DNA of 64,000 nt from Escherichia coli (lineage in GTDB: Bacteria > Pseudomonadota > Gammaproteobacteria > Enterobacterales > Enterobacteriaceae), in NCBI RefSeq assembly GCF_050920415.1, contig NZ_CP169309.1, one strand, 5' to 3'. The notes beneath the pieces were generated by a model. The model saw only the letters and a program-made list of their open reading frames with translations, ran no database searches and was not told the DNA's origin. A program made the translations under genes and the position numbers. Below are positions 11,474 through 62,227 of the stretch, in pieces. Position 1 is the stretch's first letter. Every line of letters begins with the position of its first letter.

Positions 11474-11478
11474 GGCGA

Positions 11479-12897: not shown

Positions 12898-13000
12898 ATT
12901 GTATATTTGCTAACAGTTTCGATTTCATTCATAGAATGAATTGTCAGTTTTGATACGCTAGCGTAGCCTTATAGATCTAAGGTGTATCAGGAGATAACGG

Positions 13001-13825: not shown

Positions 13826-13870
13826 ACGATCACGCCAGCAGGACGCCGCATGCACTGCAAGGGGGCGTGT

Positions 13871-15066: not shown

Positions 15067-16425
15067 ATGTCGCATAACGTTACTCCAAACACCTCTCGCG
15101 TGGAATTGCGTAAAACGCTTACGTTAGTTCCGGTTGTAATGATGGGTCTTGCCTATATGCAGCCGATGACGCTGTTTGATACATTTGGTATCGTTTCAGG
15201 CCTCACGGATGGTCATGTGCCGACAGCCTATGCGTTCGCATTGATTGCGATCCTGTTTACGGCTCTGAGCTACGGGAAGCTGGTTCGCCGCTATCCTTCT
15301 GCTGGCTCTGCATACACTTACGCCCAGAAATCCATTAGCCCGACCGTCGGCTTTATGGTGGGTTGGTCTTCTCTGCTCGACTATCTGTTCGCGCCGATGA
15401 TCAACATTCTGCTGGCGAAAATCTATTTTGAAGCTCTGGTGCCTTCCATCCCATCGTGGATGTTTGTGGTGGCGCTGGTGGCCTTTATGACCGCCTTTAA
15501 CCTGCGTAGTCTGAAATCCGTAGCGAACTTCAACACCGTCATCGTGGTGTTGCAGGTAGTGCTGATCGCGGTGATTCTGGGCATGGTTGTTTATGGCGTA
15601 TTTGAAGGTGAAGGCGCTGGTACGCTGGCGAGCACTCGTCCGTTCTGGTCTGGCGATGCGCATGTTATTCCGATGATTACCGGGGCGACAATCCTGTGCT
15701 TCTCCTTTACCGGCTTTGACGGCATCAGCAACCTGTCGGAAGAAACCAAAGATGCAGAGCGCGTGATCCCGCGTGCGATTTTCCTGACCGCGCTGATCGG
15801 CGGCATGATCTTCATCTTTGCAACTTACTTCCTGCAACTGTATTTCCCGGATATCTCTCGCTTTAAAGATCCGGATGCGTCACAGCCTGAAATCATGCTG
15901 TACGTTGCGGGTAAAGCGTTCCAGGTTGGCGCGCTGATCTTCTCCACCATTACCGTACTGGCGTCCGGTATGGCGGCGCACGCAGGCGTGGCGCGTCTGA
16001 TGTACGTAATGGGTCGTGACGGCGTATTCCCGAAAAGCTTCTTCGGTTATGTGCACCCGAAATGGCGTACTCCGGCAATGAACATCATCCTGGTTGGCGC
16101 GATTGCTCTGCTGGCAATCAACTTCGACCTGGTAATGGCTACGGCGCTGATTAACTTTGGTGCGCTGGTGGCGTTCACCTTCGTTAACCTGTCGGTTATC
16201 TCGCAGTTCTGGATCCGTGAGAAGCGTAACAAGACGCTGAAAGATCACTTCCAGTATCTGTTCCTGCCGATGTGTGGTGCGCTGACTGTAGGTGCGCTGT
16301 GGGTTAACCTGGAAGAAAGCTCAATGGTTCTGGGGCTGATCTGGGCGGCAATCGGTCTGATTTACCTGGCTTGCGTCACCAAGAGCTTCCGTAACCCGGT
16401 TCCGCAGTACGAAGACGTTGCATAA
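15067..16425 (+). CDS. plaP: Putrescine importer (APC-family amino acid/polyamine permease)
   Basis: ORF 15061..16425; start at [16 protein letters not shown], 452 aa, multi-TM. Confidence 0.9.
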
Positions 16426-27258: not shown

Positions 27259-27263
27259 GAATT

Positions 27264-27339
27264 TGGCTCCTCTGACTGGACTCGAACCAGTGACATACGG
27301 ATTAACAGTCCGCCGTTCTACCGACTGAACTACAGAGGA
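27264..27339 (-). tRNA. asnV: tRNA-Asn (GUU)
   Basis: 76 nt; reverse complement begins TCCTCTGTAGTTCAGTCGGTAGAACGGCGGACTGTTAATCC and ends ...GAGGAGCCA. Confidence 0.95.
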
Positions 27340-29663: not shown

Positions 29664-29670
29664 AGAAATT

Positions 29671-29746
29671 TGGCTCCTCTGACTGGACTCGAACCAGTGA
29701 CATACGGATTAACAGTCCGCCGTTCTACCGACTGAACTACAGAGGA
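29671..29746 (-). tRNA. asnU: tRNA-Asn (GUU)
   Basis: 76 nt, identical tRNA-Asn sequence on minus strand. Confidence 0.95.
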
Positions 29747-31494: not shown

Positions 31495-31570
31495 TCCTCT
31501 GTAGTTCAGTCGGTAGAACGGCGGACTGTTAATCCGTATGTCACTGGTTCGAGTCCAGTCAGAGGAGCCA
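31495..31570 (+). tRNA. asnW: tRNA-Asn (GUU)
   Basis: TCCTCTGTAGTTCAGTCGGTAGAACGGCGGACTGTTAATCCGTATGTCACTGGTTCGAGTCCAGTCAGAGGAGCCA. Confidence 0.95.
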
Positions 31571-31577
31571 AATTTTA

Positions 31578-35954: not shown

Positions 35955-36259
35955 AATGATCCTGTTTGTACTGTCTTTTTATAATTAGTATGGAAAAGGT
36001 AACTCACATTGCCGTCGATCTATAAACGAACCTTATGAGACTACCTCGACAGAGCGCATCTGCAAATGATTTTATGGCTGATTAACGGCAACATGAAAAA
36101 TTCGATGGAAGATGAAATCGCAGGAGTTGCATAAGGATTGAGCAGAGCACCTACAGTTTTGAGATATGAAACATAAAAGTCCGCATATGCACAAAATTGC
36201 ACCCTGATGATTCTGATAGACTGCATTGCATTTTAACCAGTAGGGAGGCGAGGTTAGGT

Positions 36260-37330
36260 ATGTTTTTAGCATCATTGTTGAGACGTATTGCATTTAGTTA
36301 CTACGATTATAAAGCTAATAATTTCAATATTGAAAAAACAGAGTTTGTTGTCATCCATATTCCCGATCAGATTGGCGATGCTATGGCTATCTTTCCAGTG
36401 ATTCGGGCGCTTGAATTGCATAAAATCAAGCATCTTTTAATTGTTACTTCGACAATTAATTTAGAAGTCTTTAATGCGCTCAAACTTGAACATACTAAAT
36501 TAACATTAGTCACAATGACTATGCAGGATCACGCAACATTAAAAGAAATAAAAGATTTAGCGAAGAACATAACACAGCGATACGGTACGCCGGATCTTTG
36601 TATAGAGGCGATGCGTAAAAAGAACCTGAAAACGATGTTATTTATCAGTCAGTTGAAAGCAAAAACGAATTTTCAGGTTGTCGGTTTAACCATGAAGTGC
36701 TATTCCCCTTTGTGTAAGAACGCCTCCCGGATGGATCAACATCTCCGGGCTCCCGTACCCATGACATGGGCGTTTATGATGCGTGAAGCGGGTTTTCCTG
36801 CAGTCAGGCCAATATATGAATTACCATTAAGCGAGCAGGTAATAAATGAAGTACGTGAGGAATTGTGCACTTTAGGATCTTACATTGCGCTTAATTTAGA
36901 TGGCAGCGTGCAGGAACGCACATTTTCGTTATCAGTAGCTGAGAAACTCATCGCCAAAATTCAAAGTGATAATGATATGCCAATAGTCATTGTTCATGGA
37001 CCAAAAGGGGAAGATAAAGCCCGGAAATTAGCGGGTTGTTATAATAATGTCTACCGGCTATCCTTATCACCCTCGATTAAACGTTCAGCAGCAATCATAA
37101 AAGATGCTTATATCGCAATAACCCCTGATACCTCAATATTACATATGGCAAGTGCCTATAATACCCCCGTCGTTGCAATTTATGCTGATTACAAAACGCG
37201 GTGGCCTGCGATGGCAGATATCTCGGAGTCAGTGGTCGTTGGGCAAAAAATTGATCATATAAGTTTGGATGAATTCGGAAAGGCGCTAAAAAGTGCTTTG
37301 GAGAGAGTATGTGTCAGTACTTACGTATAG
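36260..37330 (+). CDS. yeeL: Glycosyltransferase family 9 (heptosyltransferase-like) protein, apparently intact
   Basis: ORF 36197..37330; start at MFLASLL with GGAGG RBS; C-terminal ...ITPDTSILHMASAYNTPVVAIYADY... typical of GT9. Confidence 0.7.
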   Translation: MFLASLLRRIAFSYYDYKANNFNIEKTEFVVIHIPDQIGDAMAIFPVIRALELHKIKHLLIVTSTINLEVFNALKLEHTKLTLVTMTMQDHATLKEIKDLAKNITQRYGTPDLCIEAMRKKNLKTMLFISQLKAKTNFQVVGLTMKCYSPLCKNASRMDQHLRAPVPMTWAFMMREAGFPAVRPIYELPLSEQVINEVREELCTLGSYIALNLDGSVQERTFSLSVAEKLIAKIQSDNDMPIVIVHGPKGEDKARKLAGCYNNVYRLSLSPSIKRSAAIIKDAYIAITPDTSILHMASAYNTPVVAIYADYKTRWPAMADISESVVVGQKIDHISLDEFGKALKSALERVCVSTYV

Positions 37331-37706
37331 AGGGTAATGCCGATCTATGCTGAACAGGGGACATTAATACCCTGAGGTTGGTCAATCACCACAAAAAAAG
37401 CCTTTGAATCAAAGCAATACTCACCGAATAATAAGGCAACCTGAACTTAAATCCCCGTTAACTGCCATACATTATTATGACTTGCACTGATGTAATTAGC
37501 TAAACATTATCGTGATTTGACTAAATAGCAAAAATGATAGCTATTAAAAATAGCTCATATACTTTGTTTCCCGCTGCCGTAGAATAGATGGTCCTTCCAT
37601 GTTCAAGCATTTATTCAAAAAAAGGGGGCTCGACTGTCTTCAGATAAACAGAGAGGGATTGTAAAGTCGAGTGCCCCTAATGGAGCACTCTATAAAAAAT
37701 CAACAA

Positions 37707-45695
<7,989 letters not shown>

Positions 45696-46107
45696 GCTTA
45701 CCTTCCCTGAACGAGCTAACATAAATGCGCCCTTTCTAGCACAGCGAAAAAATATAAATCCTGATAGCAATATGATTGAAAATTAATAACTTTTCGTTAA
45801 GCAGTTTTGGGTGTGAGTTGCAAGAGGGGAGACTACTGAATAACTCAGTTTAATAATTGAGGGGGCAATGGTGACGAATATAGGGACGGAGTAGAGAAGA
45901 TAGTGCTGAACTCTTTGCCAGCAGAAGGTTATGTGGCACAAAAATAACCGTAACTTCTCACTCTCGACAGGAAAGCTGTAGACGGCGTCCATAACAAAAC
46001 GCCCCCAACCATAAGGTCGAGGGCGCTTAAGATGACAAACCCGCTCTTCGTTAAAGAATCAATGCTTAATGTAGATGAGTTGCATTGCACGATAAAAGCG
46101 AATTTTT

Positions 46108-46129
46108 AGAATTTGGCTCCTCTGACTGG
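46108..46129. repeat. 21-bp direct repeat of the 3' end of tRNA-Asn (distal att site of the islet)
   Basis: gaatttggctcctctgactgg is identical to 54382..54402 (3' end of asnT plus 5 bp). Confidence 0.85.
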
Positions 46130-46462: not shown

Positions 46463-47341
46463 TTACGGTAAATAATGCGTGACAATCTGCAGGAACTCAT
46501 CCCGCATCTGGTTGTCGATTTTCGGATTCCATGCCACACCAATGTTCCATATGATCTGCTTTCCCCACAGAGTAATCAGCTTGACTCCTACAGGTAAAAA
46601 ATTCTCGACGCTGGCGGGTAGCAGCGCGAGACCATTCCCTCCGGCTATCAATGCTAGCAGGGAATGAATATCATTCGTCGCAGAGATTGGCTCAATGATG
46701 AGTTCATTATCCCGCAGGAACGCAGTCGTTTGCTCCGCCAGACAAGGGCTGACCGCTGGATCCATGCATAAAATCGGATAGATTGCCAGCGTACGCTGGA
46801 GATCGGTGGGATCAATATCGACGGCTACCGGGACAGCCAACACCAGATTTTCTTTATTTATTAAGCGAGAGGCCAATAATTCTGTTACCGGCATACGAAC
46901 AAAACCAGCATGCAGTTCACCTTCCATCAACATCCTAGCTTGTACGCTGGAGGCAATTTGGCTGATAACAACGTCGCAGTCGGGAAATTTCTGGCGAAAA
47001 GTGTTAATCCAAACTGGTGTGCTTTTAAACGAAGATATACCAAATCCGAGCACCAGTTTACCCGTACTCCCCTTTTGGATTTCTCTGGCGTAGGTTAAAA
47101 AATCGTGGTGGGATTTCAGCAACTCATAAGCTTTAGCAAACAACTGCCTGCCAACCATCGTCAACACTGCCCCGTGGCGACCACGCAGGAAAAGCTGCCC
47201 TCCGGTCTTCTGTTCGAGCATCTTGATCTGCTTTGAAAGCGCAGGTTGTGTCAGAAATAAAGCTTCTGCAGCTTTATTGTAGTTTCCCTTTTCCGCCAGT
47301 GTCACAAATGCACGCAGCAGCCTTATATCTATTCCTGACAT
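46463..47341 (-). CDS. LysR-family transcriptional regulator (islet-encoded, divergent from the operon)
   Basis: 292 aa, N-terminal HTH IRLLRAFVTLAEKGNYNKAAEALFLTQPALSKQIKMLE. Confidence 0.85.
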   Translation of the reverse strand: MSGIDIRLLRAFVTLAEKGNYNKAAEALFLTQPALSKQIKMLEQKTGGQLFLRGRHGAVLTMVGRQLFAKAYELLKSHHDFLTYAREIQKGSTGKLVLGFGISSFKSTPVWINTFRQKFPDCDVVISQIASSVQARMLMEGELHAGFVRMPVTELLASRLINKENLVLAVPVAVDIDPTDLQRTLAIYPILCMDPAVSPCLAEQTTAFLRDNELIIEPISATNDIHSLLALIAGGNGLALLPASVENFLPVGVKLITLWGKQIIWNIGVAWNPKIDNQMRDEFLQIVTHYLP

Positions 47342-47567
47342 TTATTGAATCCTGAAAAATTGGAATTATACAAATACTCGCAACAGATGACATGATGCGT
47401 AAAATGATTTACGCCGAGATCCCCTTGGTTTGTCAAACTCAGAAACGCCATACCTGCTGCTCTTGGTTCTATTTAACACTCACTAATGCGCAGGTTATTT
47501 ATAAAAATTGACCTCATAAATCATTCAAAAACATTAATTATATAAATACAATAAGGATTAAATATTT
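47342..47567. promoter_or_regulatory. Divergent promoter/operator region between the LysR gene and the isochorismatase-hypEF operon
   Basis: 226-bp AT-rich intergenic region between divergent starts; classic LysR arrangement; no specific site mapped. Confidence 0.5.
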
Positions 47568-48167
47568 ATGCCAAATATTGCCGTTCTCACTAATGACCTG
47601 CAGTATGAGTTTACCTACAAAATAACACGCTCTCCAGAAATTCTGGCGCAAAAACTCGTCCAGTTTAATCAGTTTCTCGATGGCATTCGCGCTCTGGATC
47701 AATCCATTATCCACCTGCAACTTATCAACGATCCTAATGACCCGGCGGTACAAAAGCGCTATCGCAACCGCGAAGCGGGCATTCCTGCACTAGCTGGTCG
47801 CCCGGAAAACCAGATTATCGATAAAGTATACCGCCCCACAGATCTGGTTGTAGTCAAGGGCAGAGACAGCGGTTTTTTTAATAACGATCTCGACGAAATC
47901 CTCCAGCAACTCGGGGTAAAAACCGTAATCGTTACCGGGTTGCAAACTCATGTTTGCGTGCAGACCACTGCAGCGGATGCCTTCTTTCGCGGCTATAACG
48001 TCTGGGTACCGGGCGACTGCGTGTTCGCTCCTTCGTCCGAAGATACAGAGCGTGCACTCGAGTGGCTTGCCAGCTATTGCGCAACTGTAGCACCTTCTGC
48101 GGAAATTTTATCAATATTGCAAAAACAGAACGATCTGCCTGAGCGCGGCGAAAGGGAAGCATCATGA
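47568..48167 (+). CDS. Isochorismatase-family cysteine hydrolase
   Basis: 199 aa; ...VTGLQTHVCVQTTAADAF... matches the catalytic Cys region of the isochorismatase/CSHase/nicotinamidase family. Confidence 0.75.
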   Translation: MPNIAVLTNDLQYEFTYKITRSPEILAQKLVQFNQFLDGIRALDQSIIHLQLINDPNDPAVQKRYRNREAGIPALAGRPENQIIDKVYRPTDLVVVKGRDSGFFNNDLDEILQQLGVKTVIVTGLQTHVCVQTTAADAFFRGYNVWVPGDCVFAPSSEDTERALEWLASYCATVAPSAEILSILQKQNDLPERGEREAS

Positions 48168-49195
48168 GCTTAACCCAGACGCTAAATCATGAAGAGGTCG
48201 TTGTACTGGATCATGGCACCGGGGCGAAATTAAGCCGCGAGTTGGTTGAAAAAATTGCTAGCATTCTCGGTGACACCTATCTGGGCGTGATGGAAGATAG
48301 CGCGGTGCTGGGGTTATCCACCAGGCGAATTGCCTTCACCACCGACTCCTTTGTTGCCACGCCGCTGATTTTCGGCAACGGTGATATTGGCAAAATCGCC
48401 GTATGCGGCACCGTTAACGATCTCGCTGTCAGTGGGGCTCGTCCCCTTTACATCACACTCAGTCTTATTATTGAGGAAGGTATGCCGATGGCTGATCTGG
48501 TCAGAATCATCGAGTCCGTACGTGAAACGGCTCGTGAGGCAGAGGTCAAGATTGTCGCTGGTGATACCAAGGTCGTAGGTAAAGGTGAAGCAGATCGGCT
48601 GTTTATCAATACTGCTGGCATCGGCGTGTTTGAACATCCGCCAGTCTCAGTTAAGAACGTGCGTCCGGGGCAGAAAATAATCCTGAGCGGATATATCGGC
48701 AATCACTCGATTCACCTGCTGTCGATGCGGGAAGGATTGGGGTTCGAGCGAAATATTCTTAGTGATTGCGCACCGCTGAACCACATTATTGACAAACTTA
48801 TCAGCAACATCCCTGAAGGCAAAATAGCGTCAATGCGAGACGTTACGCGCGGTGGGCTGTCCGCTGTTTTACACGAACATGCGCGCGCAACAAATTATCA
48901 GATTCATTTCGACCAGCCATCTTTGCCCATACAGCCGGAAACCGCCATGGCAGCTAATATGCTGGGTGTTGACGTCATTAATCTCGCTAATGAAGGTTGT
49001 TTGTGCCTGTTTGTTGAACCTGAGTATGCTCAGAAGGTACTACATTTGCTGCAGGAGCATCCTGTCGGCAAGCACGCGACAATTATCGGCGAGATCACCG
49101 CTGTCTCGGGTACTGAAGTCTATATGATTGAAGCTGATGGAACACACACAGAAGTCGAGGAATTATATGGCGCAGAATTACCCAGACTCTGTTGA
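48164..49195 (+). CDS. HypE-like protein (PurM superfamily; carbamoyl dehydratase / thiocyanate-forming type) with C-terminal Cys
   Basis: 343 aa; ...DTKVV.KG.ADRLFINTAG.G... and C-terminus ...ELPRLC resembling HypE PRIC; ATGA overlap with upstream gene. Confidence 0.8.
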   Translation: MSLTQTLNHEEVVVLDHGTGAKLSRELVEKIASILGDTYLGVMEDSAVLGLSTRRIAFTTDSFVATPLIFGNGDIGKIAVCGTVNDLAVSGARPLYITLSLIIEEGMPMADLVRIIESVRETAREAEVKIVAGDTKVVGKGEADRLFINTAGIGVFEHPPVSVKNVRPGQKIILSGYIGNHSIHLLSMREGLGFERNILSDCAPLNHIIDKLISNIPEGKIASMRDVTRGGLSAVLHEHARATNYQIHFDQPSLPIQPETAMAANMLGVDVINLANEGCLCLFVEPEYAQKVLHLLQEHPVGKHATIIGEITAVSGTEVYMIEADGTHTEVEELYGAELPRLC

Positions 49196-51545
49196 GCTTC
49201 ACGAGACGCCGGAAACCCGGCGTTACCGCATCTGTGGGGTCGTTCAGGGCGTTGGATTTCGTCCCTTTGTTCACCGACTGGCCCGCACCTATGGTGCCAC
49301 CGGCTGGGTGTTAAACGATTCAGAAGGCGTGTTGCTTGAGCTGCAGGCATCCGGCACGGTTATTGCCAGAATCATGGACAAACTGGTGACCGAGGCACCA
49401 CCACTGGCAAAAATCATCAGTACGCAGGAAGTTAGCCCAACGGATACCAGAGCGCACTATGAAACGTTCAGCATCCGTAAAAGCCGCGATCATACCAGCA
49501 TGGACACGATTATCCCGCCAGATACCAACGTCTGCAGCGATTGCCTGCGCGAGATAAGCGATCCTGATAATCATCGTTATCGTTACGCTTTCACCAATTG
49601 CACCAATTGTGGGCCGCGCTATTCCATTATTCTTGGTATGCCTTACGATCGTGCCCAGAGCACTATGCGTAAATTCCCTTTATGTCCAACCTGTGAGCGT
49701 GAATACAACGATATTGAGGATCGACGCTATCATGCCCAGCCCAATGCCTGCCCAGTTTGCGGCCCACAGTTGCAACTTACCGATCGACAGGGCACATCCG
49801 TTCACACAGATGATATTGTCAAATTTGCCATTACGAAACTAAAAGAAGGCGGAATTCTTGCAATAAAGAGCCTTGGTGGCTTTCATCTCGTGGCCGATGC
49901 TTGCAATGAGAATGCTGTCAATGAACTTCGGCAACGCAAGCGAAGAGACGCCAAACCTTTTGCAGTGATGGTCGCGGATGTGGAAAGCGCGTCGCGTATT
50001 GCTTTCATCCCCCCCTGTAATCACAAATTGCTGGAAAGCCCGCAGCGTCCCATTGTCTTGTTGTATAAGCGCAACGTCCTGCTGGCGAGTACCGTTGCGC
50101 CACATAATCCGAACATCGGTGTAATGCTGCCTTCAACGCCGCTTCAGCATTTATTGCTGGAAGACCCGTCTCTGCCGATCCTGATTATGACCAGCGGTAA
50201 TATTTCCGGTCATCCGATCGTCTTTGACAACGACATGGCAATTAAGCAACTCGGGAAAATCGCGGATTACTTCATTCTGAATAATCGCGATATTCATACG
50301 CGTGTTGACGATTCGGTGGTCCGCACGGTGTTTCTCAACGACGCCATTACCTCGCAGCTATCGTTTTTGCGCCGCTCCCGCGGTTACGCGCCATACCCTA
50401 TTCATCTACCTTACGCAGTGGATTCCGTTATCGCGCTCGGGGCGGAGCTAAAAAACACGATCAGCATCGGCAAAGGAAAACAGGTTTTTCTGAGCCAGCA
50501 TATTGGCGATCTTAAGAATAACGTGACTTTTAAATCACATATCGAATGTATTGATCATCTTCAAAACCTGCTGAACGTGAAGGCAAATGTCGTGGCCTGC
50601 GATTTGCATCCCTCTTTCCGCTCTACCCGGCATGCGCTGGAGAATTTAGAGCATCAGGTTGTTCAGGTTCAACACCATCACGCGCATATGGCATCCTGCA
50701 TGGCGGAAAATGGCCTGTCAGGTACTACTCTAGGCGTAATTTTTGACGGTACAGGATATGGCACCGACGGCACCATTTGGGGCGGTGAGTTTCTCGTTGG
50801 TGATTTCGAAAAATTCGAGCGTGCAGGATGCTTGCGTTCAATGACCCTGCCCGGAGGCGATCGGGCAGTTAAAGAGCCGCTGCGCGTCGGCATCTCCTTA
50901 CTGGTGGAAACCTTCGGCGAAGATATCAGTACGCTCGCAGTACCAGGCTTGCAGGCGCTCCAGCCTCAGCAGCGCGATATATTCAGTAAAATGGCGACCA
51001 GAAAAATCAACACCACCACGACCAGCAGCATGGGCAGACTATTTGACGGCATCGCCGCGCTGATGGGCGTTTGCACTCAGGTGGAGTACGAAGCCCAGGC
51101 GGCCATTGAACTGGAAGCGCTGCTGCAGTGTAAACTTCATATGACGGCTCCGTTCAGCTACATCATTGCCGATGTCGAGAATAAGCTCGAGGTGGATTAT
51201 CGCCCGATGATAAGGGAACTGGTGCAATGCTTCAGCCAGCCCGGTTTTGATATGGCCGAACTAAGTCGGCGCTTTCACTCTACCATCGTCGACATGATTT
51301 GCGAGGTCTGTAAACGTCTGGTGGCACGCTCAGGCACGCAACAAATTGTCCTGAGCGGCGGCGTGTTCTGCAATGAATTCATCCTCGTTAATTCTCTTAA
51401 CAGTCTGGAGTCTTGTGGATTCCGGCCTTACAGCCATCAGTTAGTTCCGACTAACGATGGTGGTATTTCATTGGGGCAAGTGGTTATTGCTACCGCATAC
51501 ACTCGCGCAACGCGCAATAAAAATCTGGAGAGAGAAAATGCATAG
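49167..51545 (+). CDS. HypF-like carbamoyltransferase (acylphosphatase, two CxxC-N18-CxxC Zn fingers, YrdC-like and Kae1-like domains)
   Basis: ORF 49128..51545; start at ATG 49167 with GAGG RBS; VQGVGFRPFV acylphosphatase motif; CSDC...CTNCGPR and CPTC...CPVCGP fingers; HHHAH in the C-terminal domain. Confidence 0.82.
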   Translation: MAQNYPDSVELHETPETRRYRICGVVQGVGFRPFVHRLARTYGATGWVLNDSEGVLLELQASGTVIARIMDKLVTEAPPLAKIISTQEVSPTDTRAHYETFSIRKSRDHTSMDTIIPPDTNVCSDCLREISDPDNHRYRYAFTNCTNCGPRYSIILGMPYDRAQSTMRKFPLCPTCEREYNDIEDRRYHAQPNACPVCGPQLQLTDRQGTSVHTDDIVKFAITKLKEGGILAIKSLGGFHLVADACNENAVNELRQRKRRDAKPFAVMVADVESASRIAFIPPCNHKLLESPQRPIVLLYKRNVLLASTVAPHNPNIGVMLPSTPLQHLLLEDPSLPILIMTSGNISGHPIVFDNDMAIKQLGKIADYFILNNRDIHTRVDDSVVRTVFLNDAITSQLSFLRRSRGYAPYPIHLPYAVDSVIALGAELKNTISIGKGKQVFLSQHIGDLKNNVTFKSHIECIDHLQNLLNVKANVVACDLHPSFRSTRHALENLEHQVVQVQHHHAHMASCMAENGLSGTTLGVIFDGTGYGTDGTIWGGEFLVGDFEKFERAGCLRSMTLPGGDRAVKEPLRVGISLLVETFGEDISTLAVPGLQALQPQQRDIFSKMATRKINTTTTSSMGRLFDGIAALMGVCTQVEYEAQAAIELEALLQCKLHMTAPFSYIIADVENKLEVDYRPMIRELVQCFSQPGFDMAELSRRFHSTIVDMICEVCKRLVARSGTQQIVLSGGVFCNEFILVNSLNSLESCGFRPYSHQLVPTNDGGISLGQVVIATAYTRATRNKNLERENA

Positions 51546-52278
51546 TTCTGCGAACCGTATTGCCGCTGTTTTATTCGATATGGATGGTGTCCTTATTGAT
51601 TCCAATGCGGTGATTGAGCGCGGCTGGGCTGAAGGCGCACAGATGTTTGGCAAGACGCTAACGGAAGAGGATATCGTCAGGCATATTCACGGACAGCCCG
51701 GCCCGCATACCATTCGCGCCCTGTTCAGCGACCTTTCCCTGGAAGATCAAAAGAAGGTCCAGTCACATATCATCCACGTTGAAAATACCGCTGATTACGA
51801 CCCGATCCCTGGAGTTAGCGAACTTATCCAGGCGTTGCATAAGGCTGGCATCAGTGTGGGGATTGTCACTAGCGGCTGGCGGTCGAAAATCGATCGTATT
51901 ATGGAGATGCTGCAAATCACGCCCTGTATTTCAGTGATTGTCGAACGTGATGATGTCGTGCGCGGCAAGCCTTATCCCGATCCTTATCTGCTTGCCGCAG
52001 AGCGGTTTCATCTTGCACCGTCCAGAACACTGGTCTTTGAGGATTCAAGAAGCGGCGTAACATCTGCTGTTACAGCAGGCGCAATTTGTGTTGGCATCGG
52101 TACAGACAGTCTGAAAGAGTGCGGTGCCGTGCTTGCAATTACAGATTTTCGTAATGTGAAAATCACCTCACAGACAGGCGAAAAAGTAGTGATTGCCTTT
52201 ACTCCAGAGCACCAGATGGAGATGGAAACTCAGAGCTCTCGTAAGAAAACATCCTGTACCACAAGAGAAGAGTGCTAA
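51538..52278 (+). CDS. HAD-superfamily hydrolase (subfamily IA, phosphatase/beta-phosphoglucomutase-like)
   Basis: ORF 51457..52278; start at MHSSANRIAAVLFDMDGVLIDS (DxDG motif), overlapping the hypF-like stop. Confidence 0.75.
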   Translation: MHSSANRIAAVLFDMDGVLIDSNAVIERGWAEGAQMFGKTLTEEDIVRHIHGQPGPHTIRALFSDLSLEDQKKVQSHIIHVENTADYDPIPGVSELIQALHKAGISVGIVTSGWRSKIDRIMEMLQITPCISVIVERDDVVRGKPYPDPYLLAAERFHLAPSRTLVFEDSRSGVTSAVTAGAICVGIGTDSLKECGAVLAITDFRNVKITSQTGEKVVIAFTPEHQMEMETQSSRKKTSCTTREEC

Positions 52279-53471
52279 TGAATATCACACAGAAGGGACG
52301 CTGGGCTGTCACTATGCTATTTTTTATCAATGGCTTCGTCACCGGAGGTTGGGCTGTGCAAATTGCACAGCTTGTACCACGCTTTGGCGTGACCGACAAA
52401 GTGATCGGCCATTTAATTCTGATCTTCGGATTCGGTGCACTAACCATGATGCCCATATCAGGCATTCTGATGGAAAAGATGGGGACACAAATCGTAACGC
52501 GTATTTTTGCCCTTGCAGCCTCCCTGGCATTAATTCCGGTTGGTTTAGCCACCACCCCATTAGTGTTGATGCCAGCGTTATTTGTTCTTGGTGCGATGAT
52601 TGGTGCCATGAATGTAGCGATGAACTCGAATGCCGTGGCGGTGGAGAGATCACTCTCACAAGCGATTTTATCCTCCTGCCATTGCTTCTGGAGTATCGGC
52701 CTATTTGCGGCGGGCTCGATAGGCGGCCATCTTGTTGAACAATTTGGCTTTTTGACGCATATCTTTTTGATTAGTGCCGTGGCCTTAATACTGACGCTGA
52801 TTATCGCTCCGGCCATTTTTAAAGACATACAGACGGTTAAATCCACCAGCAGACAGACCACCCGGTTGCCTCGTTCTCCGGCGATTTATCTGATTGGATT
52901 GATGGCTTTTCTGGCCATGATCCCTGAATGCGCTGTTGTTGACTGGTCGTCACGCTATTTGATTAAAAATCTCAATGCAAAAACAGAAATCGCCAGCCTT
53001 GCCTTCGCCTGCTTTGCTGTAGCAATGGCCTTGTTTCGCTTTATGGGTGACGTGATCCGCAACCGCTTCGGCGCAATATTAATTATACGAATCTCCAGCT
53101 TACTGGCAGGCGCTAGCCTATTGTTGAGCGCACTGGCACACAATCCCTGGCAGGCGATCTGCGCATTTACCTTAGCGGGAATCGGCATCGCCAACCTTGT
53201 GCCCATTGTCTTTTCCGCAGCGGGAAATCAGCCCAATATTTCCACCAACACAGGAATGAGCATTGCCACAACCATTGGGTATTTAGGCACGCTAATGGCC
53301 CCTGCGCCTATTGGCTATATTGCGGAAATAACCGGTTTTCCAGTGGTTTATTGCGGACTAGCTTTCATGTCGGGAATTATCTTTTTGCTGGCACCACTGG
53401 TTCGGGGGGCAGAAATCTCTGTACAGCGGCAGCGAGCCTCAAACAAACACCAGAATACCGGAGCGTTGTAA
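52272..53471 (+). CDS. MFS transporter
   Basis: 399 aa, about 12 predicted TM segments; start overlaps the HAD stop (GTG 52272 or ATG 52278). Confidence 0.75.
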   Translation: MLMNITQKGRWAVTMLFFINGFVTGGWAVQIAQLVPRFGVTDKVIGHLILIFGFGALTMMPISGILMEKMGTQIVTRIFALAASLALIPVGLATTPLVLMPALFVLGAMIGAMNVAMNSNAVAVERSLSQAILSSCHCFWSIGLFAAGSIGGHLVEQFGFLTHIFLISAVALILTLIIAPAIFKDIQTVKSTSRQTTRLPRSPAIYLIGLMAFLAMIPECAVVDWSSRYLIKNLNAKTEIASLAFACFAVAMALFRFMGDVIRNRFGAILIIRISSLLAGASLLLSALAHNPWQAICAFTLAGIGIANLVPIVFSAAGNQPNISTNTGMSIATTIGYLGTLMAPAPIGYIAEITGFPVVYCGLAFMSGIIFLLAPLVRGAEISVQRQRASNKHQNTGAL

Positions 53472-54027
53472 TTTCTGCCTGGCAAATACTGTGAAACGCT
53501 GACGCAAATTTTACTTTCCTGCGTATTGTCATCACAGGCCGTACAGACAGTGCGCGGTCTGTTGGCGGATCTGCCTGGTATTTTGCCGATGAACTGAGGG
53601 CGTCCTGCGGGATACGTATCGCCAGGGGCGTGAAACTAATTGATGAGGTGGCGGCATGATGCCGGCGGACTAGCATATCTGCCTTTCGCCGCCTGACATG
53701 TCCTTTGGGGCCGCTGTCAGTTCAGAGTAAAGGAGAAAAAGATCGATACCGAGGGGGGGCACGACGCCCCGGAGACACCCCTGTTTCGTCAGACAGTCTG
53801 TACCGCGTACAGCCTGAAACTCCCTAAACCTCAACAAACTGCCACTTCGACGTGAAGGTATCGTTCTGGCGCAGCCAAAAAGCACATGCCGGAGACTGTT
53901 TTTTTGGTTGTAGAGGGTAGTCATGAGCAAATTAAGTAGTGAAATGAAGGCCCTGACGAAGAAAGCAGGCGGCAGCTTCAAAACGGTAAATGACCGTATC
54001 CATATTACAAAACGGTTCAGTGAGCAT

Positions 54028-54225
54028 TTACGCGAACTGAACATCCAGATCCGGCGGGTATGCGCCAAGACTGACTCTGGATTCTTTTCCGTTGAAACGA
54101 TATTTGAGATACCAGATGCGTGAACCGCCCGGATTGACGAGCAGATACAGACCGTGAGAGTCGGAGAGTTTTACCGGACGGGAAGAGGTTTTTAACTTGC
54201 GGATTTTAGAATCGTTTAAAGACAT
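54028..54225 (-). pseudogene. P4-type tyrosine integrase, N-terminal remnant only
   Basis: MSLNDSKIRKLKTSSRPVKLSDSHGLYLLVNPGGSRIWYLKYRFNGKESRVSLGAYP matches the N-terminal arm-binding region of tRNA-associated island integrases, then terminates prematurely. Confidence 0.65.
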
Positions 54226-54386
54226 TTGGGGGTCACTCCAGAATCGAACCAAACTGACCCCAGATCTGACCACCAAATTATCCCGATGCGGAGAGAAAAC
54301 CAGATACGCACCGGGGAGGATTTTCACGCTAACTTACTGAACCGTAAACAAATAGAGATGTACAGATAAGCATGAAAACTTGAATT

Positions 54387-54462
54387 TGGCTCCTCTGACT
54401 GGACTCGAACCAGTGACATACGGATTAACAGTCCGCCGTTCTACCGACTGAACTACAGAGGA
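54387..54462 (-). tRNA. asnT: tRNA-Asn (GUU)
   Basis: 76 nt, identical tRNA-Asn sequence; sits between mtfA and the islet/yeeJ. Confidence 0.93.
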
Positions 54463-55543: not shown

Positions 55544-56126
55544 CTTTATCAATGACTTATCTCCCGACTTCCCGCCTTGCTTTTCCTAAACAGAACAATC
55601 GTAGAATATTCTTGAAGGGTTAGATCGTCACTGTTTTCTGTTCGATACTGTGACATTCAGCACTTGATTCGCTATGGATCAGACAGGAAGGTTTCGAGCG
55701 AAAATCTACTGTTATTCAGTCGTTTTCTTATCGGTCACCATTATTCTTCTCATCTTATGCTTTAGATATTGATCCTATGAAACCGATGTTACGTTAGTGG
55801 GCGGGAACTGAAGTTACGGAGTAAAAGGGTTAATAATTGAGCCAAAAAAGGAACGCGGCCGTCAGATTAAAGCCGCGGGACAAAGTCCATAATTTCCAAG
55901 AGTTGTTGAATTTCCCAGCTTTTTTGAAAGCCTTTGTATCATACTAACAAGTAAAAAAGGTTTAAATACCAAAATTAACCTGTATTTTTGATAAGTCTTA
56001 CCATTGTACGATTTACACAGTTTCTGCTCCTCCTTGTTGATAGTGGAAAGAGTGCGGTATGCACTTGCGTAAACATTTATGATGCGTTGATGTCCAGGGT
56101 TCACATTTCCTTGTCAGGGGATCGAC

Positions 56127-56657
56127 TTATTTGTGGCGAGGCATCATTCGTAACAGAGTATTATCTTTCTGAATGTAATGATGAAAGAGCGCTGCGCCAG
56201 CGTGGGCTGCGATTAAAAAGTAACCTATGTTCGCCCAGGTTTCGTGAATATTTTTTATCAATGCTTTAATTTCACTGTTTGGGGTAACAAAAGGCGGCAC
56301 ATTGAAACCAAGGAAACTCCACGATTTTCCACTATAAGCCATTAAAGCAATCCCCAACAGTGGAAGCGCAAGGAAGGTTATATAAAGCATGATGTGCATT
56401 AGCGAAGCCGCTTTCATTTGCCAGGCAGGTGGCGGTGGCACAATAGAGGGATCACTATAACGGTGTTTTATTATAAGGCGTGAAAACATTAACACCCAAA
56501 CGAAGATACCCGCATTGTAATGTGTTTCACGCATCAACAGATAAGTATTACTACCTTTGGGAAACCAGCCACGGAGTTCCATTGCGGCATAAGTGATTGC
56601 AATGAAAAGCAGCGTTATCCAGTGTAAATAAATTTGAGTTTTTGAGAATCGATTCAT
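56127..56657 (-). CDS. yodB: Cytochrome b561-family protein
   Basis: ORF 56127..56687; start at MNRFSKTQIYLHW, 176 aa, 4 TM. Confidence 0.88.
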   Translation of the reverse strand: MNRFSKTQIYLHWITLLFIAITYAAMELRGWFPKGSNTYLLMRETHYNAGIFVWVLMFSRLIIKHRYSDPSIVPPPPAWQMKAASLMHIMLYITFLALPLLGIALMAYSGKSWSFLGFNVPPFVTPNSEIKALIKNIHETWANIGYFLIAAHAGAALFHHYIQKDNTLLRMMPRHK

Positions 56658-57001
56658 TTTTATAGCTCCTGTAATTTTCACAGTCAAGCTATCCCACGAA
56701 CCTTAAAAATACCTTATACAGATGTGGTTTTAAGAATTTGTTATTTAAAAAATTGAAAAGGGTAAATTGTGAACAGTCAATATAAGCAATTGCCTGCGCC
56801 CAGTTATCTTACGCTGTTGGCAGTATTGTATATGGAGTCCGTTATTGATTAACCCTATGAGGGCTTGCTTATTAAGATGCAGACACGTCATAGCGATGAG
56901 CGTGTCTGCAGCTACCTTGCATTCAGTGGCGTTTGTGGATGGACCTGTGGCTGCTATGATAACTTAATAAAAACGGCATCGAGACGCTATTCATGGAAGA
57001 C

Positions 57002-57652
57002 TCAATGAGACATCATCTCCTCGACCACTTCTTCGCTACTCAACTGATAGGGATAATACGTTGGCCAGTTTTCCATTTCATTCAATAAAGATTGCTGTGA
57101 ATCATTACCCATAAAAATGTGAAAATGAGATGATTTTCGTGGTGCAATTATATGATCGCTAAATTGTATATATTTAGGGGCTTTGCTTTCAGGATCTTTA
57201 CATTCGAATAAGTAACGAACGCCTTTCTTGCCTGATTTATAGGTGAGTATTTTGTAGCCATCGTAATCATATTTACAGGATGTAGTTTCGTTATTTATAT
57301 GGAATTCAATAATGCCGTCCTCAATACCAATCATTTCGATATCTGTCGAGTAGCCTTTCTGATAATAATCTTTAACTTCTGCGAATGTTTTGGTTTTATC
57401 TGCATTCGCTTTCTTTCGAAAGACGGGGTCAAGCTTGCCATTTTGCAGTAAGGGATAAACGGATTGCCAGACTCCATCCCAGTCACTGAGCGTTCGGTTT
57501 TGTACATTGGCATCATCAAAAACACCGTTAGCCGCTTTTTGTTCGACCTCTGTTAAGGGTTTGCCGTGTGAGTGATGACCATGCGAAAAGGCAGGAGCGC
57601 TAACAATAAAGACACCTAAAGCAATAGCCAGTTTATTAAGACGAATCGCCAA
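57002..57652 (-). CDS. zinT: Periplasmic zinc/cadmium-binding protein ZinT
   Basis: 216 aa, signal peptide then HGHHSHG His-rich motif. Confidence 0.93.
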
Positions 57653-57844
57653 AACAGTTTCCTCCAGAGTTATTGTACATGACGTGTTATGTTATATTGT
57701 AACATATGACGAAATGCAATAACTCTTAGGAAACAAGAGCATAGTTTTCTCAGGTGTATTTACCTATCTTATTGAAATGAAATAAATTATGTCGATGATT
57801 TGAGGTTGATGACAAACGAAACATAACTTGATGCGATCTGTGTG

Positions 57845-57878
57845 GGCCGGATAAGGCGCTCACACCGCATCCGGCAGG
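57845..57878. repeat. REP element
   Basis: gggccggataaggcgctcacaccgcatccggcag. Confidence 0.6.
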
Positions 57879-57908
57879 GATAACGCGTACTTTGTCGGCA
57901 ATATGAAG

Positions 57909-58544
57909 TTATAGAGATGATTTGTTGTGAACCTGCTTGCGTAATCGGTTGAAAAGGGAAAGTAGCTTTTTATACCGTAAGGCTAAAAGCAGTACAGCCA
58001 GCCCAGCGTAGATGAGTGGCTGCGGTGAAATAATCTTCACTGACCACAGATAATGTATTGGAGCCAGGATCGCGACAAGATAGACGAAGTTATGCAACTG
58101 TTGCCAGTGTTTGCCGAGTTTTCGCTGCATCGCCTGGGTTGAAGTGAACGCTAAAGCAAGCAAAATTACCCAACTAATAATACCTAACGTTAAATAAGGT
58201 CGGGTGATTAACTCCTTGCCTAATAACGCCAGATTATTCACGCCCAGCTCCAGTAATGCGTAACTGGTTAAATGCAGTGTCGCCCAGGCAAAGCACCATA
58301 AGCCTAACAGGCGTCGAGTCCGCATCAATAACGGCTGTTTTGCGTAACGTGCCAGAGGTGTAATTAACAAGGTCGCCAGCAAAAATTTCAGTGCAGTGCG
58401 TCCGGTAAAATGCTGAATATCTTTCACCGGATCGGCTCCTAGTCCACCGTGATTGATCGCCCAGGCAAGCCAGAGCAACGGCAACAATCCGGCAAGATGC
58501 AGGCAAAGTTTTAGCCATGTCACCTGTTTTGCTGTCAGACGCAT
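57909..58544 (-). CDS. msrQ: Methionine sulfoxide reductase heme-binding membrane subunit
   Basis: 211 aa, [26 protein letters not shown]. Confidence 0.92.
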
Positions 58545-59651: not shown

Positions 59652-60065
59652 TTAACTGCCACGATAGGTTGAATACCCATATTGGCTAAGTAACAAAGGT
59701 ACATGATAATGCTCGTTCACTTTATTAATTTGAAACTCAACAGGGATCTCAGGGAAGAAACTTTCAAGATTTTGTTTCTTAAAATATTCTCCAGTTTTAA
59801 ATACAACACGGTAATCGCCCGTGGTTGCAGTTTGCTCGGGCCACAGTGCCTTGATTCGTCCATCCTTATCTGTTTTGGCGGTATTAAGTTGTAACCAGCC
59901 GTTATCCGCTTTCTTTTCCAGAGTGACTGTCACGTCGGCAGCGGGTTTTCCTGTTTGCTGGTTCAAAATGTGCACGCTAAGAATGTTTTGTTGTGCGGCA
60001 TAAACCAAAGAAGGTAATGAAAATGCAGCCGTTGCAACCGAGAGTAGTAAATAACGCTTTAACAT
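59652..60065 (-). CDS. hiuH: 5-hydroxyisourate hydrolase (transthyretin-like)
   Basis: 137 aa, C-terminal YRGS. Confidence 0.9.
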
Positions 60066-60197
60066 GTTTATATCCTTGTCATGTGAATGAGTTTTGAGGA
60101 TAGCGAAAAAACGTCTGTGATAACCTTACAGAAGCATTACAATTTTGTAATGAACCAGGCTGTTTCTATAACATATGATTTATGGCATATTATTTTC

Positions 60198-60869
60198 ATG
60201 AAGATTCTACTTATTGAAGATAATCAAAGGACCCAGGAATGGGTAACGCAGGGGCTTTCAGAAGCAGGTTATGTCATTGATGCGGTTTCTGATGGCAGAG
60301 ATGGGCTTTATCTTGCGCTGAAGGATGATTATGCATTGATCATTCTGGATATTATGCTTCCGGGTATGGATGGCTGGCAGATCTTACAAACGTTACGAAC
60401 GGCAAAGCAAACCCCCGTTATTTGCCTTACAGCAAGGGATTCTGTCGATGACAGAGTCAGAGGGCTGGACAGTGGGGCAAATGATTATCTGGTAAAACCT
60501 TTTTCATTTTCTGAGTTGCTGGCGAGGGTTCGGGCACAATTAAGGCAACATCATGCGCTGAATTCAACATTAGAAATCAGCGGATTAAGAATGGACTCTG
60601 TCAGCCAAAGTGTGAGCAGGGACAATATCAGTATTACACTGACGCGCAAGGAGTTTCAGTTACTTTGGCTACTGGCCTCCAGAGCTGGCGAAATTATACC
60701 CAGAACGGTTATTGCGAGTGAAATTTGGGGAATCAATTTCGATAGTGATACTAATACGGTGGATGTCGCTATTCGCAGGCTCCGCGCAAAAGTTGATGAT
60801 CCTTTTCCTGAAAAGCTAATCGCTACAATCCGGGGAATGGGGTATTCATTTGTAGCGGTAAAAAAATAA
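60198..60869 (+). CDS. hprR: OmpR-family response regulator
   Basis: ORF 60087..60869; start at MKILLIEDNQ, 223 aa. Confidence 0.9.
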   Translation: MKILLIEDNQRTQEWVTQGLSEAGYVIDAVSDGRDGLYLALKDDYALIILDIMLPGMDGWQILQTLRTAKQTPVICLTARDSVDDRVRGLDSGANDYLVKPFSFSELLARVRAQLRQHHALNSTLEISGLRMDSVSQSVSRDNISITLTRKEFQLLWLLASRAGEIIPRTVIASEIWGINFDSDTNTVDVAIRRLRAKVDDPFPEKLIATIRGMGYSFVAVKK

Positions 60870-62227
60870 TGAAAAGATTATCTATAACCGTCCGTTTAAC
60901 CTTGCTTTTTATATTGCTACTGTCTGTCACTGGCGCTGGAATTGTCTGGACTCTCTATAATGGCCTGGCAAGTGAGTTGAAATGGCGCGATGATACAACA
61001 CTCATTAACCGGACAGCGCAGATCAAGCAGTTGTTAATTGATGGGGTAAATCCAGATACGTTACCTGTGTACTTTAACCGGATGATGGATGTTAGTCAGG
61101 ATATCTTGATCATTCATGGTGATGGCATCAATAAAATTGTTAACCGGACGAATGTCAGTGATGATATGTTAAATAACATACCTACGACTGAGGCAATCAG
61201 TGCAGCTGGCATTTACAGAAGCATTATTAATGACACAGAGATAGATGCTTTACGAATTAACATTGATGAAATTTCGCCATCATTAACGGTTACTGTGGCT
61301 AAATTGGCTTCAGCCAGACATAACATGCTTGAACAGTATAAAATTAATAGCATTATAATTTGCATCGTCGCCATTATACTGTGCTCAGTATTAAGTCCGC
61401 TGTTAATCAGAACGGGATTACGAGAGATCAAAAAGTTGAGTGGGGTAACGGAAGCATTAAATTATAACGACACCCGAGAGCCTGTTGAGGTTATCGCACT
61501 ACCGAGTGAATTAAAACCTCTTGGTCAGGCGTTGAATAAAATGCACCATGCTTTAGTAAAAGATTTTGAGCGCCTTAGCCAATTTGCTGACGATCTCGCT
61601 CATGAACTTAGAACGCCAATTAATGCATTACTGGGTCAGAATCAGGTGACGCTCAGTCAAACCCGAAGTATCGCTGAGTATCAAAAAACAATTGCCGGAA
61701 ACATTGAAGAGCTGGAAAATATTTCGCGGTTAACAGAGAATATACTGTTTCTTGCCAGAGCAGATAAAAGCAATGTTTTGGTGAAACTGGATTCGCTCTC
61801 TCTTAACAAGGAAATTGGGAATTTGTTAGACTATCTGGAATACCTTTCAGAAGAGAAAGAGATTCGTTTTCAGGTCGAGTGCAATCAGCAAATCTTTGCG
61901 GATGAAATTTTACTTCAACGAATGTTATCGAATCTTATTGTTAACGCCATTCGATATTCACCAGAAAAATCGTGCATTCATATAACCAGTTTTCTTGATG
62001 CCAACGGCTCTCTTAATATTGATATCGCCAGCCCTGGATCGAAAATTAATGAGCCGGAAAAACTCTTCCGTAGATTTTGGCGGGGAGATAATTCGCGTCA
62101 TTCTGCAGGTCAGGGGCTTGGCCTTTCTTTAGTCAAAGCAATTGCCGAATTGCATGGGGGAAGTGCTACGTATCACTATTTAAATCAACATAATGTGTTC
62201 CGTATTACGTTACCGCAAAGAAATTAA
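60869..62227 (+). CDS. hprS: Sensor histidine kinase
   Basis: 452 aa, two TM segments, H-box LAHELRTPINAL, ATPase domain. Confidence 0.9.
   Translation: MKRLSITVRLTLLFILLLSVTGAGIVWTLYNGLASELKWRDDTTLINRTAQIKQLLIDGVNPDTLPVYFNRMMDVSQDILIIHGDGINKIVNRTNVSDDMLNNIPTTEAISAAGIYRSIINDTEIDALRINIDEISPSLTVTVAKLASARHNMLEQYKINSIIICIVAIILCSVLSPLLIRTGLREIKKLSGVTEALNYNDTREPVEVIALPSELKPLGQALNKMHHALVKDFERLSQFADDLAHELRTPINALLGQNQVTLSQTRSIAEYQKTIAGNIEELENISRLTENILFLARADKSNVLVKLDSLSLNKEIGNLLDYLEYLSEEKEIRFQVECNQQIFADEILLQRMLSNLIVNAIRYSPEKSCIHITSFLDANGSLNIDIASPGSKINEPEKLFRRFWRGDNSRHSAGQGLGLSLVKAIAELHGGSATYHYLNQHNVFRITLPQRN

Follow-up and report, generated by a model that had tools for sequence, protein, structure and literature searches.

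Which function can a HypE/HypF pair have at a locus that encodes neither a hydrogenase nor HypC and HypD? This question is raised by a 64,000-nucleotide stretch of an Escherichia coli genome (contig NZ_CP169309.1 of assembly GCF_050920415.1; hereafter the window), in which genes for a HypE-type and a HypF-type protein directly follow a gene for a cysteine hydrolase, here termed CysH. HypE hands cyanide to the HypC-HypD iron scaffold during [NiFe]-hydrogenase maturation, and to our knowledge the only known role of HypE and HypF is the making of the cyanide ligands of the hydrogenase cofactor. An initial annotation of the window, made from its sequence alone, had nevertheless proposed that the pair was repurposed away from hydrogenase maturation. 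The formation of a separate clade, the intact motifs and genomic contexts other than hypCD operons support this proposal, and the clade very probably has a non-hydrogenase role. The explanation that in our view accounts best for the data as a whole, and that we consider rather probable, is a horizontally acquired biosynthetic cassette that makes an exported small molecule via HypF, HypE and CysH. This suggests that bacteria use cyanide-making chemistry to build secreted small molecules.

Our analysis went beyond the initial annotation in three respects: the HypE/HypF pair sits inside a complete tRNA-Asn islet, the upstream hydrolase is a conserved third partner, and the family is widespread. 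The data point to a distinct and widespread clade outside the hydrogenase pathway, in which HypCD would be exchanged for a cysteine-hydrolase partner and which is found in natural-product and metabolite-export clusters.

The HypE/HypF pair and its setting

The three genes at the centre of this study are the following.

47568-48167, plus strand: isochorismatase-like cysteine hydrolase CysH; stop codon and HypE start codon share 4 nt of overlap
48164-49195, plus strand: HypE-type carbamoyl dehydratase (PurM fold), 343 aa, with the C-terminus ...GAELPRLC
49167-51545, plus strand: HypF-type carbamoyltransferase with all four domains, 792 aa; 29 nt overlap with HypE

For HypF, either the RefSeq ATG at 49167 (792 aa) or an upstream TTG at 49128 (805 aa) could serve as start codon; we favour the former, because 792-aa homologues of other genera agree with the RefSeq start. 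The architecture that had been read from the sequence in the initial annotation was recovered by profile searches, which placed both proteins above the NCBIfam equivalog cut-offs and returned the expected Pfam domains. HypE carries the two PurM-type domains AIRS (4.7e-23) and AIRS_C (9.8e-24) as well as the C-terminal PRLC, and reaches 415 bits against the hypE equivalog TIGR02124 (cut-off 252). In HypF, the motif VQGVGFRPFV and two CxxC-N18-CxxC zinc fingers are present, the YrdC-like and Kae1-like domains were identified by Pfam (Acylphosphatase, two zf-HYPF, Sua5_yciO_yrdC, HypF_C and HypF_C_2), and the score against the hypF equivalog TIGR00143 is 788 bits (cut-off 466). The closest solved structures are HypE and HypF of Caldanaerobacter (complex 3VTI/3VTH).

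The lack of HypC, HypD and a hydrogenase context was likewise borne out, as tblastn with HypA, HypB, HypC, HypD and HycE of strain K-12 gave no match in the whole window. The neighbours had also been named correctly: the cysteine hydrolase gene precedes the pair, and genes for a HAD phosphatase and an MFS transporter follow it. The window HypE and HypF are each only 39% identical to their K-12 counterparts, and a recent duplication of the host hyp genes was rejected on account of this low identity. Because 5423 of 5426 complete E. coli genomes have the canonical hypD-hypE genes, the additional pair is an extension of the normal set of maturation genes and not its replacement. From the same count we infer a canonical hyp operon in the source genome itself, and the additional HypE and HypF are, as far as gene content tells, very likely redundant for hydrogenase activity.

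A divergent HypE clade ending in PRLC

The initial annotation had left room for the pair to cluster with canonical HypE and HypF, which is not what we found. When 72,556 plasmids were searched by tblastn with HypE as the query, 10 records matched at 56-79% identity, whereas the other 135 reached at most 44%, and an independent search of the same plasmids with CysH recovered exactly those ten best HypE records. Four low-identity records were inspected (Butyrivibrio, Parabacteroides, Cupriavidus necator pHG1 and Streptomyces rimosus): in the three annotated ones HypE lies within classical hypC-hypD/hydrogenase clusters, and the unannotated S. rimosus record encodes homologues of HypC, HypD and the hydrogenase large subunit according to blastp. 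Among 1.84 billion cluster representatives (50% identity) searched with the window HypE, 873 matched at E <= 1e-30; the whole clade is covered by a single representative (439 bits, 60% identity), and the next one, at 323 bits, marks the start of the canonical continuum. In a neighbour-joining tree, all loci with the CysH-linked type of HypE form one monophyletic clade.

The clade is also marked by its C-terminus, which reads PRLC in 118 of the 120 closest homologues and in all 14 clade loci, and PRIC in all six loci that bear HypCD. Within the PR[IV]C motif, Cys, Pro and Arg are invariant; Leu replaces Ile/Val in the clade, while Ile is found in 122 of 122 canonical sequences. To compare the proteins over their full length, 118 clade sequences (117 homologues and the window HypE) were aligned with 122 canonical ones (121 representatives and K-12 HypE), and positions conserved in at least 95% of the former and at least 90% of the latter were counted as shared. 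The 49 near-invariant positions common to both groups include D83, D131-T-K133, E272, R334 and C336 (K-12 numbering), which argues that the ATP-dependent dehydratase machinery of the clade HypE is intact. A further 18 residues are specific to the clade, among them N72, H184, V227, M262, C279 and L342. Of these, Asn72 replaces a Gly that is invariant in canonical HypE (K-12 G69), and Cys279 (window 48998-49000), invariant in the clade, directly follows the catalytic Glu277-Gly278, where canonical HypE most often has Lys. Two roles are conceivable for this Cys279: as an additional thiol it could accept the cyano group, or it could pair with Cys343 in a disulfide.

HypF is far less changed: 102 positions are invariant in 17 clade and four canonical sequences, among them the full set of eight cysteines in the zinc fingers and the HHxxH site (H503/H504/H507), and only two positions are clade-specific. 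A loss of catalytic motifs, the other outcome that would have spoken against repurposing, was thus seen in neither protein. Since HypF is almost unchanged, the divergence is concentrated in HypE, a pattern that would fit a pathway altered at its acceptor end. Comparisons between genera gave 0.14-0.26 nonsynonymous substitutions per site (dN) with saturated synonymous substitutions (dS), and a dN/dS of approximately 0.07-0.10 against Citrobacter, with an upper bound of about 0.1; by these estimates the cassette is under strong purifying selection between genera. Within E. coli, substitutions are too few for dN/dS to be informative.

A cysteine hydrolase as third partner

CysH is named cysteine hydrolase in RefSeq, and its homologues carry the precomputed Pfam domain Isochorismatase (PF00857). 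The catalytic triad Asp10-Lys97-Cys130 is conserved to at least 98% in 115 homologues, and the family has invariant residues of its own (H49, D58, W166 and C171). Its nearest solved or characterised relatives are an N-carbamoylsarcosine amidase (CSHase)-related protein, RutB and the biuret hydrolase BiuH, although CysH remains below every equivalog cut-off, with 54 versus 378 bits for RutB, 51 versus 370 for BiuH and 29 versus 174 for PncA.

The link between CysH and HypE was assessed in a context survey that drew on contigs encoding homologues and on the plasmid collection. CysH accompanies the PRLC type of HypE on all 10 plasmids and in 17 of 18 loci. CysH, HypE and HypF are adjacent or in one cluster in Enterobacter, Citrobacter, Salmonella, Burkholderia, Paraburkholderia, Rhizobium and Alteromonadaceae, and are also found together in Sorangium, Cystobacter, two Streptomyces lineages (including S. 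clavuligerus) and Micromonospora, in one further NCBI genome and in two metagenome-type assemblies. Thirty further HypE/CysH pairs were matched across two independent homologue lists by the equal size of their longest contig. Over 16 loci the pairwise distances of CysH, HypE and HypF correlate with r = 0.81-0.94, which indicates that the three travel as one unit. Deep sister lineages with PRLC likewise adjoin a gene of the isochorismatase family; in one of them the order is HypF-CysH-HypE, and the other is without HypF. Judged by comparative genomics, CysH and HypE are partners; whether CysH is also the direct functional partner of HypE is in our estimate evenly balanced.

A pair of this kind was seen on a contig of the JGI metagenome 3300077760 (1407-6763), in a row of four genes whose products are a 780-aa protein with a TIR domain, an ARMT1/DUF89-like and an isochorismatase-like protein, and a HypE-like protein that ends in PRLC and keeps the canonical FPGGN and NEGK motifs; no HypF was found within 15.7 kb. 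As other TIR, nSTAND-like and AAA_35 STAND-ATPase genes surround it, the row looks like a defence island, and its CysH-HypE pair could represent an unrelated use in immunity.

Genome neighbourhoods of the clade

The neighbourhood survey covered 17 distinct loci, none of which lies in a hypCD operon; NRPS (nonribosomal peptide synthetase) genes, exporters and amine-making enzymes are found nearby instead. The three genes are part of NRPS clusters in Sorangium, Cystobacter and Streptomyces, and are embedded in a cassette with LysR, HAD and MFS genes in enterics, Burkholderia and Alteromonadaceae. In Paraburkholderia, Micromonospora and one further NCBI genome they are accompanied by GNAT and/or diaminobutyrate-transaminase genes. 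The S. clavuligerus cluster combines them with an ATP-grasp protein, an agmatinase-like ureohydrolase and an MFS transporter; one locus has a molybdopterin-oxidoreductase and radical-SAM cluster around the three genes, and another a cluster of a sugar aminotransferase (DegT-type), a nucleotidyltransferase and ABC components. Exporters are present in most clade loci.

A dedicated primary-amine-making enzyme is found in seven of approximately 15 distinct contexts. The Alteromonadaceae cluster (CysH-HypE-HypF-HAD-GT2-MFS-GlmS) encodes a full GlmS (855 bits, cut-off 418), and the Burkholderia cluster a protein that corresponds to the isomerase half of GlmS. A diaminobutyrate transaminase is present in three lineages, in two of them with a score that exceeds the family cut-off, and Cystobacter has SbnA and SbnB, each above its cut-off; the DegT-type aminotransferase named above belongs to this group of enzymes as well. 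C-N groups are acted on by two other neighbours, the agmatinase-like ureohydrolase of S. clavuligerus and a CN-hydrolase of the Burkholderia cluster that is most closely related to nitrilases and to N-carbamoyl amidohydrolases. The Burkholderia cluster further encodes an Amidohydro_1 protein for which searches of PDB and NCBIfam gave no match.

Some of the loci deserve a separate description. On plasmid pSYMBR3459 of Paraburkholderia phenoliruptrix (locus 1-7960, 12001-16065), an ectB-type transaminase and a GNAT gene lie between the three genes and the hup/hyp cluster. In a metagenome-assembled genome (MAG) of Lachnospiraceae (locus 1-13318), HypE and HypF of the PRLC clade form the end of a polysaccharide locus with four small unannotated open reading frames (ORFs) upstream; the other genes of this locus encode glycosyltransferases, a UDP-sugar dehydrogenase, a polysaccharide deacetylase and an ATP-grasp protein. 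The CysH gene of E. coli AST85 is split into two short ORFs (locus 4169-4757), and in Lonsdalea britannica the alignment extends over no more than 274 aa of HypE and 311 aa of HypF; both look like cases of independent cassette decay in some hosts.

The tRNA-Asn islet and its operon

In the window, the three genes belong to an islet with the following further features.

46109-46129, plus strand: distal att-like direct repeat GAATTTGGCTCCTCTGACTGG, a copy of the tRNA-Asn 3' end; left islet border
46463-47341, minus strand: LysR-family regulator, divergent from the operon (ORF, RefSeq and NCBIfam LysR-family matches)
47342-47567, no strand: divergent intergenic control region, 226 bp, AT-rich
51538-52278, plus strand: HAD-IA phosphatase of the beta-phosphoglucomutase / sugar-phosphatase type; 8 nt overlap with HypF
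52278-53471, plus strand: MFS transporter, predicted to be a probable exporter (RefSeq, weak NCBIfam MFS match); 1 nt overlap with the HAD gene
53923-54225, no strand: two overlapping phage-type integrase remnants (pseudogenes; RefSeq features of a 100%-identical record, coordinates converted)
54387-54462, minus strand: tRNA-Asn (GTT), integration site and right islet border (ARAGORN and RefSeq)

The exact 21-mer GAATTTGGCTCCTCTGACTGG of the left border recurs at 54382-54402, overlapping the 3' end of the tRNA-Asn gene, and ARAGORN called no tRNA gene at the copy at 46109. With its flanking 21-bp repeats, integrase remnants and patchy distribution, the locus is a tRNA-Asn islet of approximately 8.3 kb. 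It is present in 16 of the 5426 complete E. coli genomes, in each case in the chromosome and with 99.1-100% identity; the segment 46400-53600 (7.2 kb) is 100% identical to E. coli strain MFDS1022581.

CysH, HypE, HypF, HAD and MFS form a five-gene operon, in which successive frames overlap by 4, 29, 8 and 1 nt. The HAD protein matches the sugar phosphatase PRK11587 (5e-33) and the PGMB-YQAB subfamily (6e-31) in NCBIfam, and its orthologues lie downstream of HypF in Enterobacter, Citrobacter, Salmonella, Burkholderia and Alteromonadaceae. Orthologues of the MFS transporter with 58-70% identity are found in Salmonella, Citrobacter and Lonsdalea, and the LysR regulator has equally placed orthologues in Enterobacter, Citrobacter, Salmonella and Lonsdalea (52-59% identity) and in Burkholderia (35%). 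Promoter-like hexamers at 47524-47552 (plus strand) and 47393-47365 (minus strand) are matches to the consensus only, and such matches are not commoner than in shuffled sequence. A role of the locus as a defence system was considered and rejected, as the PADLOC models of anti-phage defence gave no match among the five operon proteins.

Proposed function and alternative explanations

In the pathway that we propose, HypF would convert carbamoyl phosphate and ATP to carbamoyl-AMP and then carbamoylate the C-terminal Cys343 of the cassette HypE, a step suggested by the full conservation of the HypF catalytic core and the terminal Cys of HypE. The S-carbamoyl group would be dehydrated by HypE in an ATP-driven reaction to an S-cyano group, i.e. 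a protein-bound thiocyanate, given that the ATP-binding and catalytic positions of canonical HypE are retained. In place of HypC/HypD, the translationally coupled CysH with its intact Asp-Lys-Cys triad would engage HypE and relay or transfer the C-N unit to a small-molecule nucleophile, which would most likely be a primary amine. The product would bear an N-cyano group or one of its derivatives (ureido, guanidino or cyclic isourea). That the transferred group is cyano and not carbamoyl appears to us somewhat the likelier of the two. For the E. coli cassette with its HAD and MFS genes, the acceptor is probably a phosphorylated amino sugar, given its gene content and because Burkholderia and Alteromonadaceae add GlmS-type genes to this cassette type. 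Our best guess is glucosamine-6-phosphate (GlcN-6-P), a tentative assignment that may well prove wrong. The HAD phosphatase would then dephosphorylate the product and the MFS transporter export it, with the divergent LysR protein as the putative regulator of the operon.

Taken more generally, HypF, the PRLC-type HypE and a transferase with the cysteine-hydrolase fold may form a portable, protein-tethered electrophilic cyanating system that is present in at least four phyla and cyanates amines, a possibility to which we give less than even credence. Its targets would be amines in sugars, in diamino acids and in the building blocks of NRPS products, and enterics would secrete a modified amino sugar. 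The products would be N-cyano compounds, cyclic guanidines or 2-amino-oxazolines, and the reaction class would be one that is not yet described.

Several of our observations weigh against the biosynthetic cassette or against parts of it. All characterised relatives of CysH hydrolyse amides or ureido groups and none is a transferase. AlphaFold2, applied to a CysH-(GGGGS)6-HypE fusion with 22 paired alignment rows, left the HypE tail undocked (predicted template modelling score 0.67), and the tail residues 567-572 of the fusion had a predicted local distance difference test score below 50. The sole locus of 18 without a visible CysH, the Lachnospiraceae MAG, is on a contig that ends 70 bp after HypF. 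The idea of GlcN-6-P is based on two related cassettes only, and since the HAD protein also resembles HAD-type pyrophosphatases, it may merely remove pyrophosphate. In Paraburkholderia, the three genes lie approximately 4 kb from a canonical hup/hyp hydrogenase cluster. Finally, the degraded copies in AST85 and Lonsdalea britannica indicate that the cassette is dispensable.

The principal alternative retains the three proteins but changes the group that is moved. HypE would be a mere carrier, and the Cys of CysH would take over the S-carbamoyl group and deliver it to an amine, thereby reversing the first half-reaction of CSHase or RutB and yielding a ureido product, e.g. an N-carbamoyl amino sugar. 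N-carbamoylsarcosine amidase, RutB and biuret hydrolase attack ureido or amide carbonyls via a Cys-bound acyl or carbamoyl intermediate, and it is to these enzymes and their related proteins that CysH is nearest; moreover, the Burkholderia CN-hydrolase is close to N-carbamoylputrescine and N-carbamoyl-D-amino-acid amidohydrolases, and the S. clavuligerus cluster has an agmatinase-like ureohydrolase. However, a passive carrier needs none of the nucleotide-binding and dehydratase positions of HypE that are kept in at least 95% of 117 clade members, and single enzymes of the TobZ/NodU type carbamoylate without HypE, which renders a relay of three proteins needlessly complex. We therefore consider transfer of a carbamoyl group unlikely. 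Less probable still is that the locus generates cyanide (or thiocyanate or cyanate), with a thiol attacking the HypE thiocyanate and freeing hydrogen cyanide (HCN) as a toxin or building block. The thiol could be Cys130 of CysH, Cys279 of HypE or glutathione supplied via a glutathione S-transferase (GST). The new invariant Cys279 beside the catalytic Glu-Gly would suit such a role, in Sorangium and Cystobacter the three genes are flanked by GST genes, release of cyanide from organic thiocyanates is a known GST activity, and thiolysis of R-SCN to a disulfide and cyanide is facile chemistry. Free HCN, on the other hand, requires neither the phosphatase nor the MFS exporter that are conserved in the cassette type, amine-making enzymes recur beside the three genes, and a disulfide-forming release would require a reductant to regenerate HypE. 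No gene for the handling of cyanide, e.g. for a rhodanese or a cyanoalanine synthase, was seen in the 17 loci, and the PALP enzyme of Cystobacter scores as SbnA and not as the latter.

Two further explanations dispense with a biosynthetic role altogether, and both are very unlikely in our judgement. The pair could be a spare or specialised hydrogenase-maturation set that uses HypC and HypD of the host, as both proteins pass the hypE/hypF equivalog cut-offs, the partners are available in nearly all E. coli genomes (canonical hypD-hypE, see above) and the Paraburkholderia copy is near a hup cluster. This is difficult to reconcile with the 39% identity to the host pair, with the signature residues of the clade, where two residues invariant in canonical HypE (K-12 G69 and the Ile of PRIC) are replaced, and with the linkage to CysH in NRPS, aminosugar and diamino-acid contexts outside hypCD operons; in addition, plasmid pSYMBR3459 of Paraburkholderia holds a second HypE match. 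Even slightly less credible is a decaying remnant without present function in E. coli. It is true that the integrase is in fragments, that the islet is found in few genomes, that one strain has a split CysH and that the Lonsdalea copy looks degraded. Yet the window and most of the 16 genomes, which are 99.1-100% identical, have all six genes undamaged, the catalytic residues are intact, and purifying selection between genera is strong.

Relation to described systems

The biosynthetic cassette proposed here shares parts with three groups of described enzymes. Compared with HypE and HypF of [NiFe]-hydrogenase maturation (E. coli 2I6R and 3TSP; Caldanaerobacter 3VTI/3VTH), the folds, the domain order, the catalytic residues and the Pro-Arg-X-Cys end are the same, and the islet pair most probably performs the same two reactions, S-carbamoylation and ATP-dependent dehydration to the thiocyanate. 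It differs by its 39% identity, the PRLC end, the 18 HypE residues and an isochorismatase-like neighbour instead of HypC/HypD. Judged from gene context, the locus as a system would therefore lack the defining feature of Hyp maturation, which is delivery to HypCD. Enzymes of the TobZ/NodU/CmcH type, encoded in biosynthetic clusters, carbamoylate small molecules directly, with carbamoyl phosphate and ATP as substrates and carbamoyl-AMP as intermediate. HypF of the islet has their YrdC-like and Kae1-like domains, and we propose a similar purpose; in contrast to the islet, which keeps a full HypF and an intact HypE, these enzymes are without the acylphosphatase domain, the zinc fingers, the HypE carrier and the dehydration. 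CysH has the fold and the Asp-Lys-Cys triad of N-carbamoylsarcosine amidase, RutB, BiuH and nicotinamidase, and the Cys-bound carbamoyl or acyl intermediate of these hydrolases corresponds in kind to the adduct formed by HypF on HypE. Unlike them, CysH is far below the family cut-offs, has its own invariant residues and is translationally coupled to HypE.

Homologues of hypE and hypF together with an ATP-grasp ligase gene, with the other hyp genes absent, were noted in Streptomyces in the decRiPPter study of 2020, whose authors remarked in two sentences that such hypE/hypF may "have adopted a novel function" (PMC7794033). The S. clavuligerus locus of our survey has this architecture, but the remark names no clade, cysteine-hydrolase partner, distribution or mechanism (PMC7794033). 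Furthermore, the decRiPPter candidate class resembles ribosomally synthesised and post-translationally modified peptides (RiPP-like), whereas most of the loci described here are NRPS, aminosugar or diamino-acid cassettes. Our full-text literature searches found this remark only and no functional study of such HypE/HypF proteins, although a subscription-only paper could have been missed.

If our explanation is true, the locus represents a new enzymatic way of furnishing small molecules with cyano, cyanamide, guanidine or ureido groups, and a PRLC-ending HypE beside an isochorismatase-like gene would be a marker for genome mining. Some strains of E. coli, Citrobacter, Enterobacter and Salmonella would then produce an unrecognised secreted metabolite. 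The RefSeq name "hydrogenase expression/formation protein HypE", given in every annotated record examined, would be a systematic annotation error to correct.

Further observations in the window

The 21-mer of the tRNA-Asn 3' end is also found at 27259-27279, 29666-29686 and 31555-31575, presumably in other tRNA-Asn genes, so that several equivalent attachment sites for Asn-tRNA islands exist within 30 kb. The islet is directly adjoined by a gene for an adhesin of 2687 aa with Ig-like domains (37707-45770, minus strand), which is frameshifted in strain AST85. The G+C content is 39-40% at 1-2000, 36001-38000, 56001-58000 and 60001-62000, compared with approximately 50% elsewhere in the window, and these segments may be other horizontally acquired pieces.

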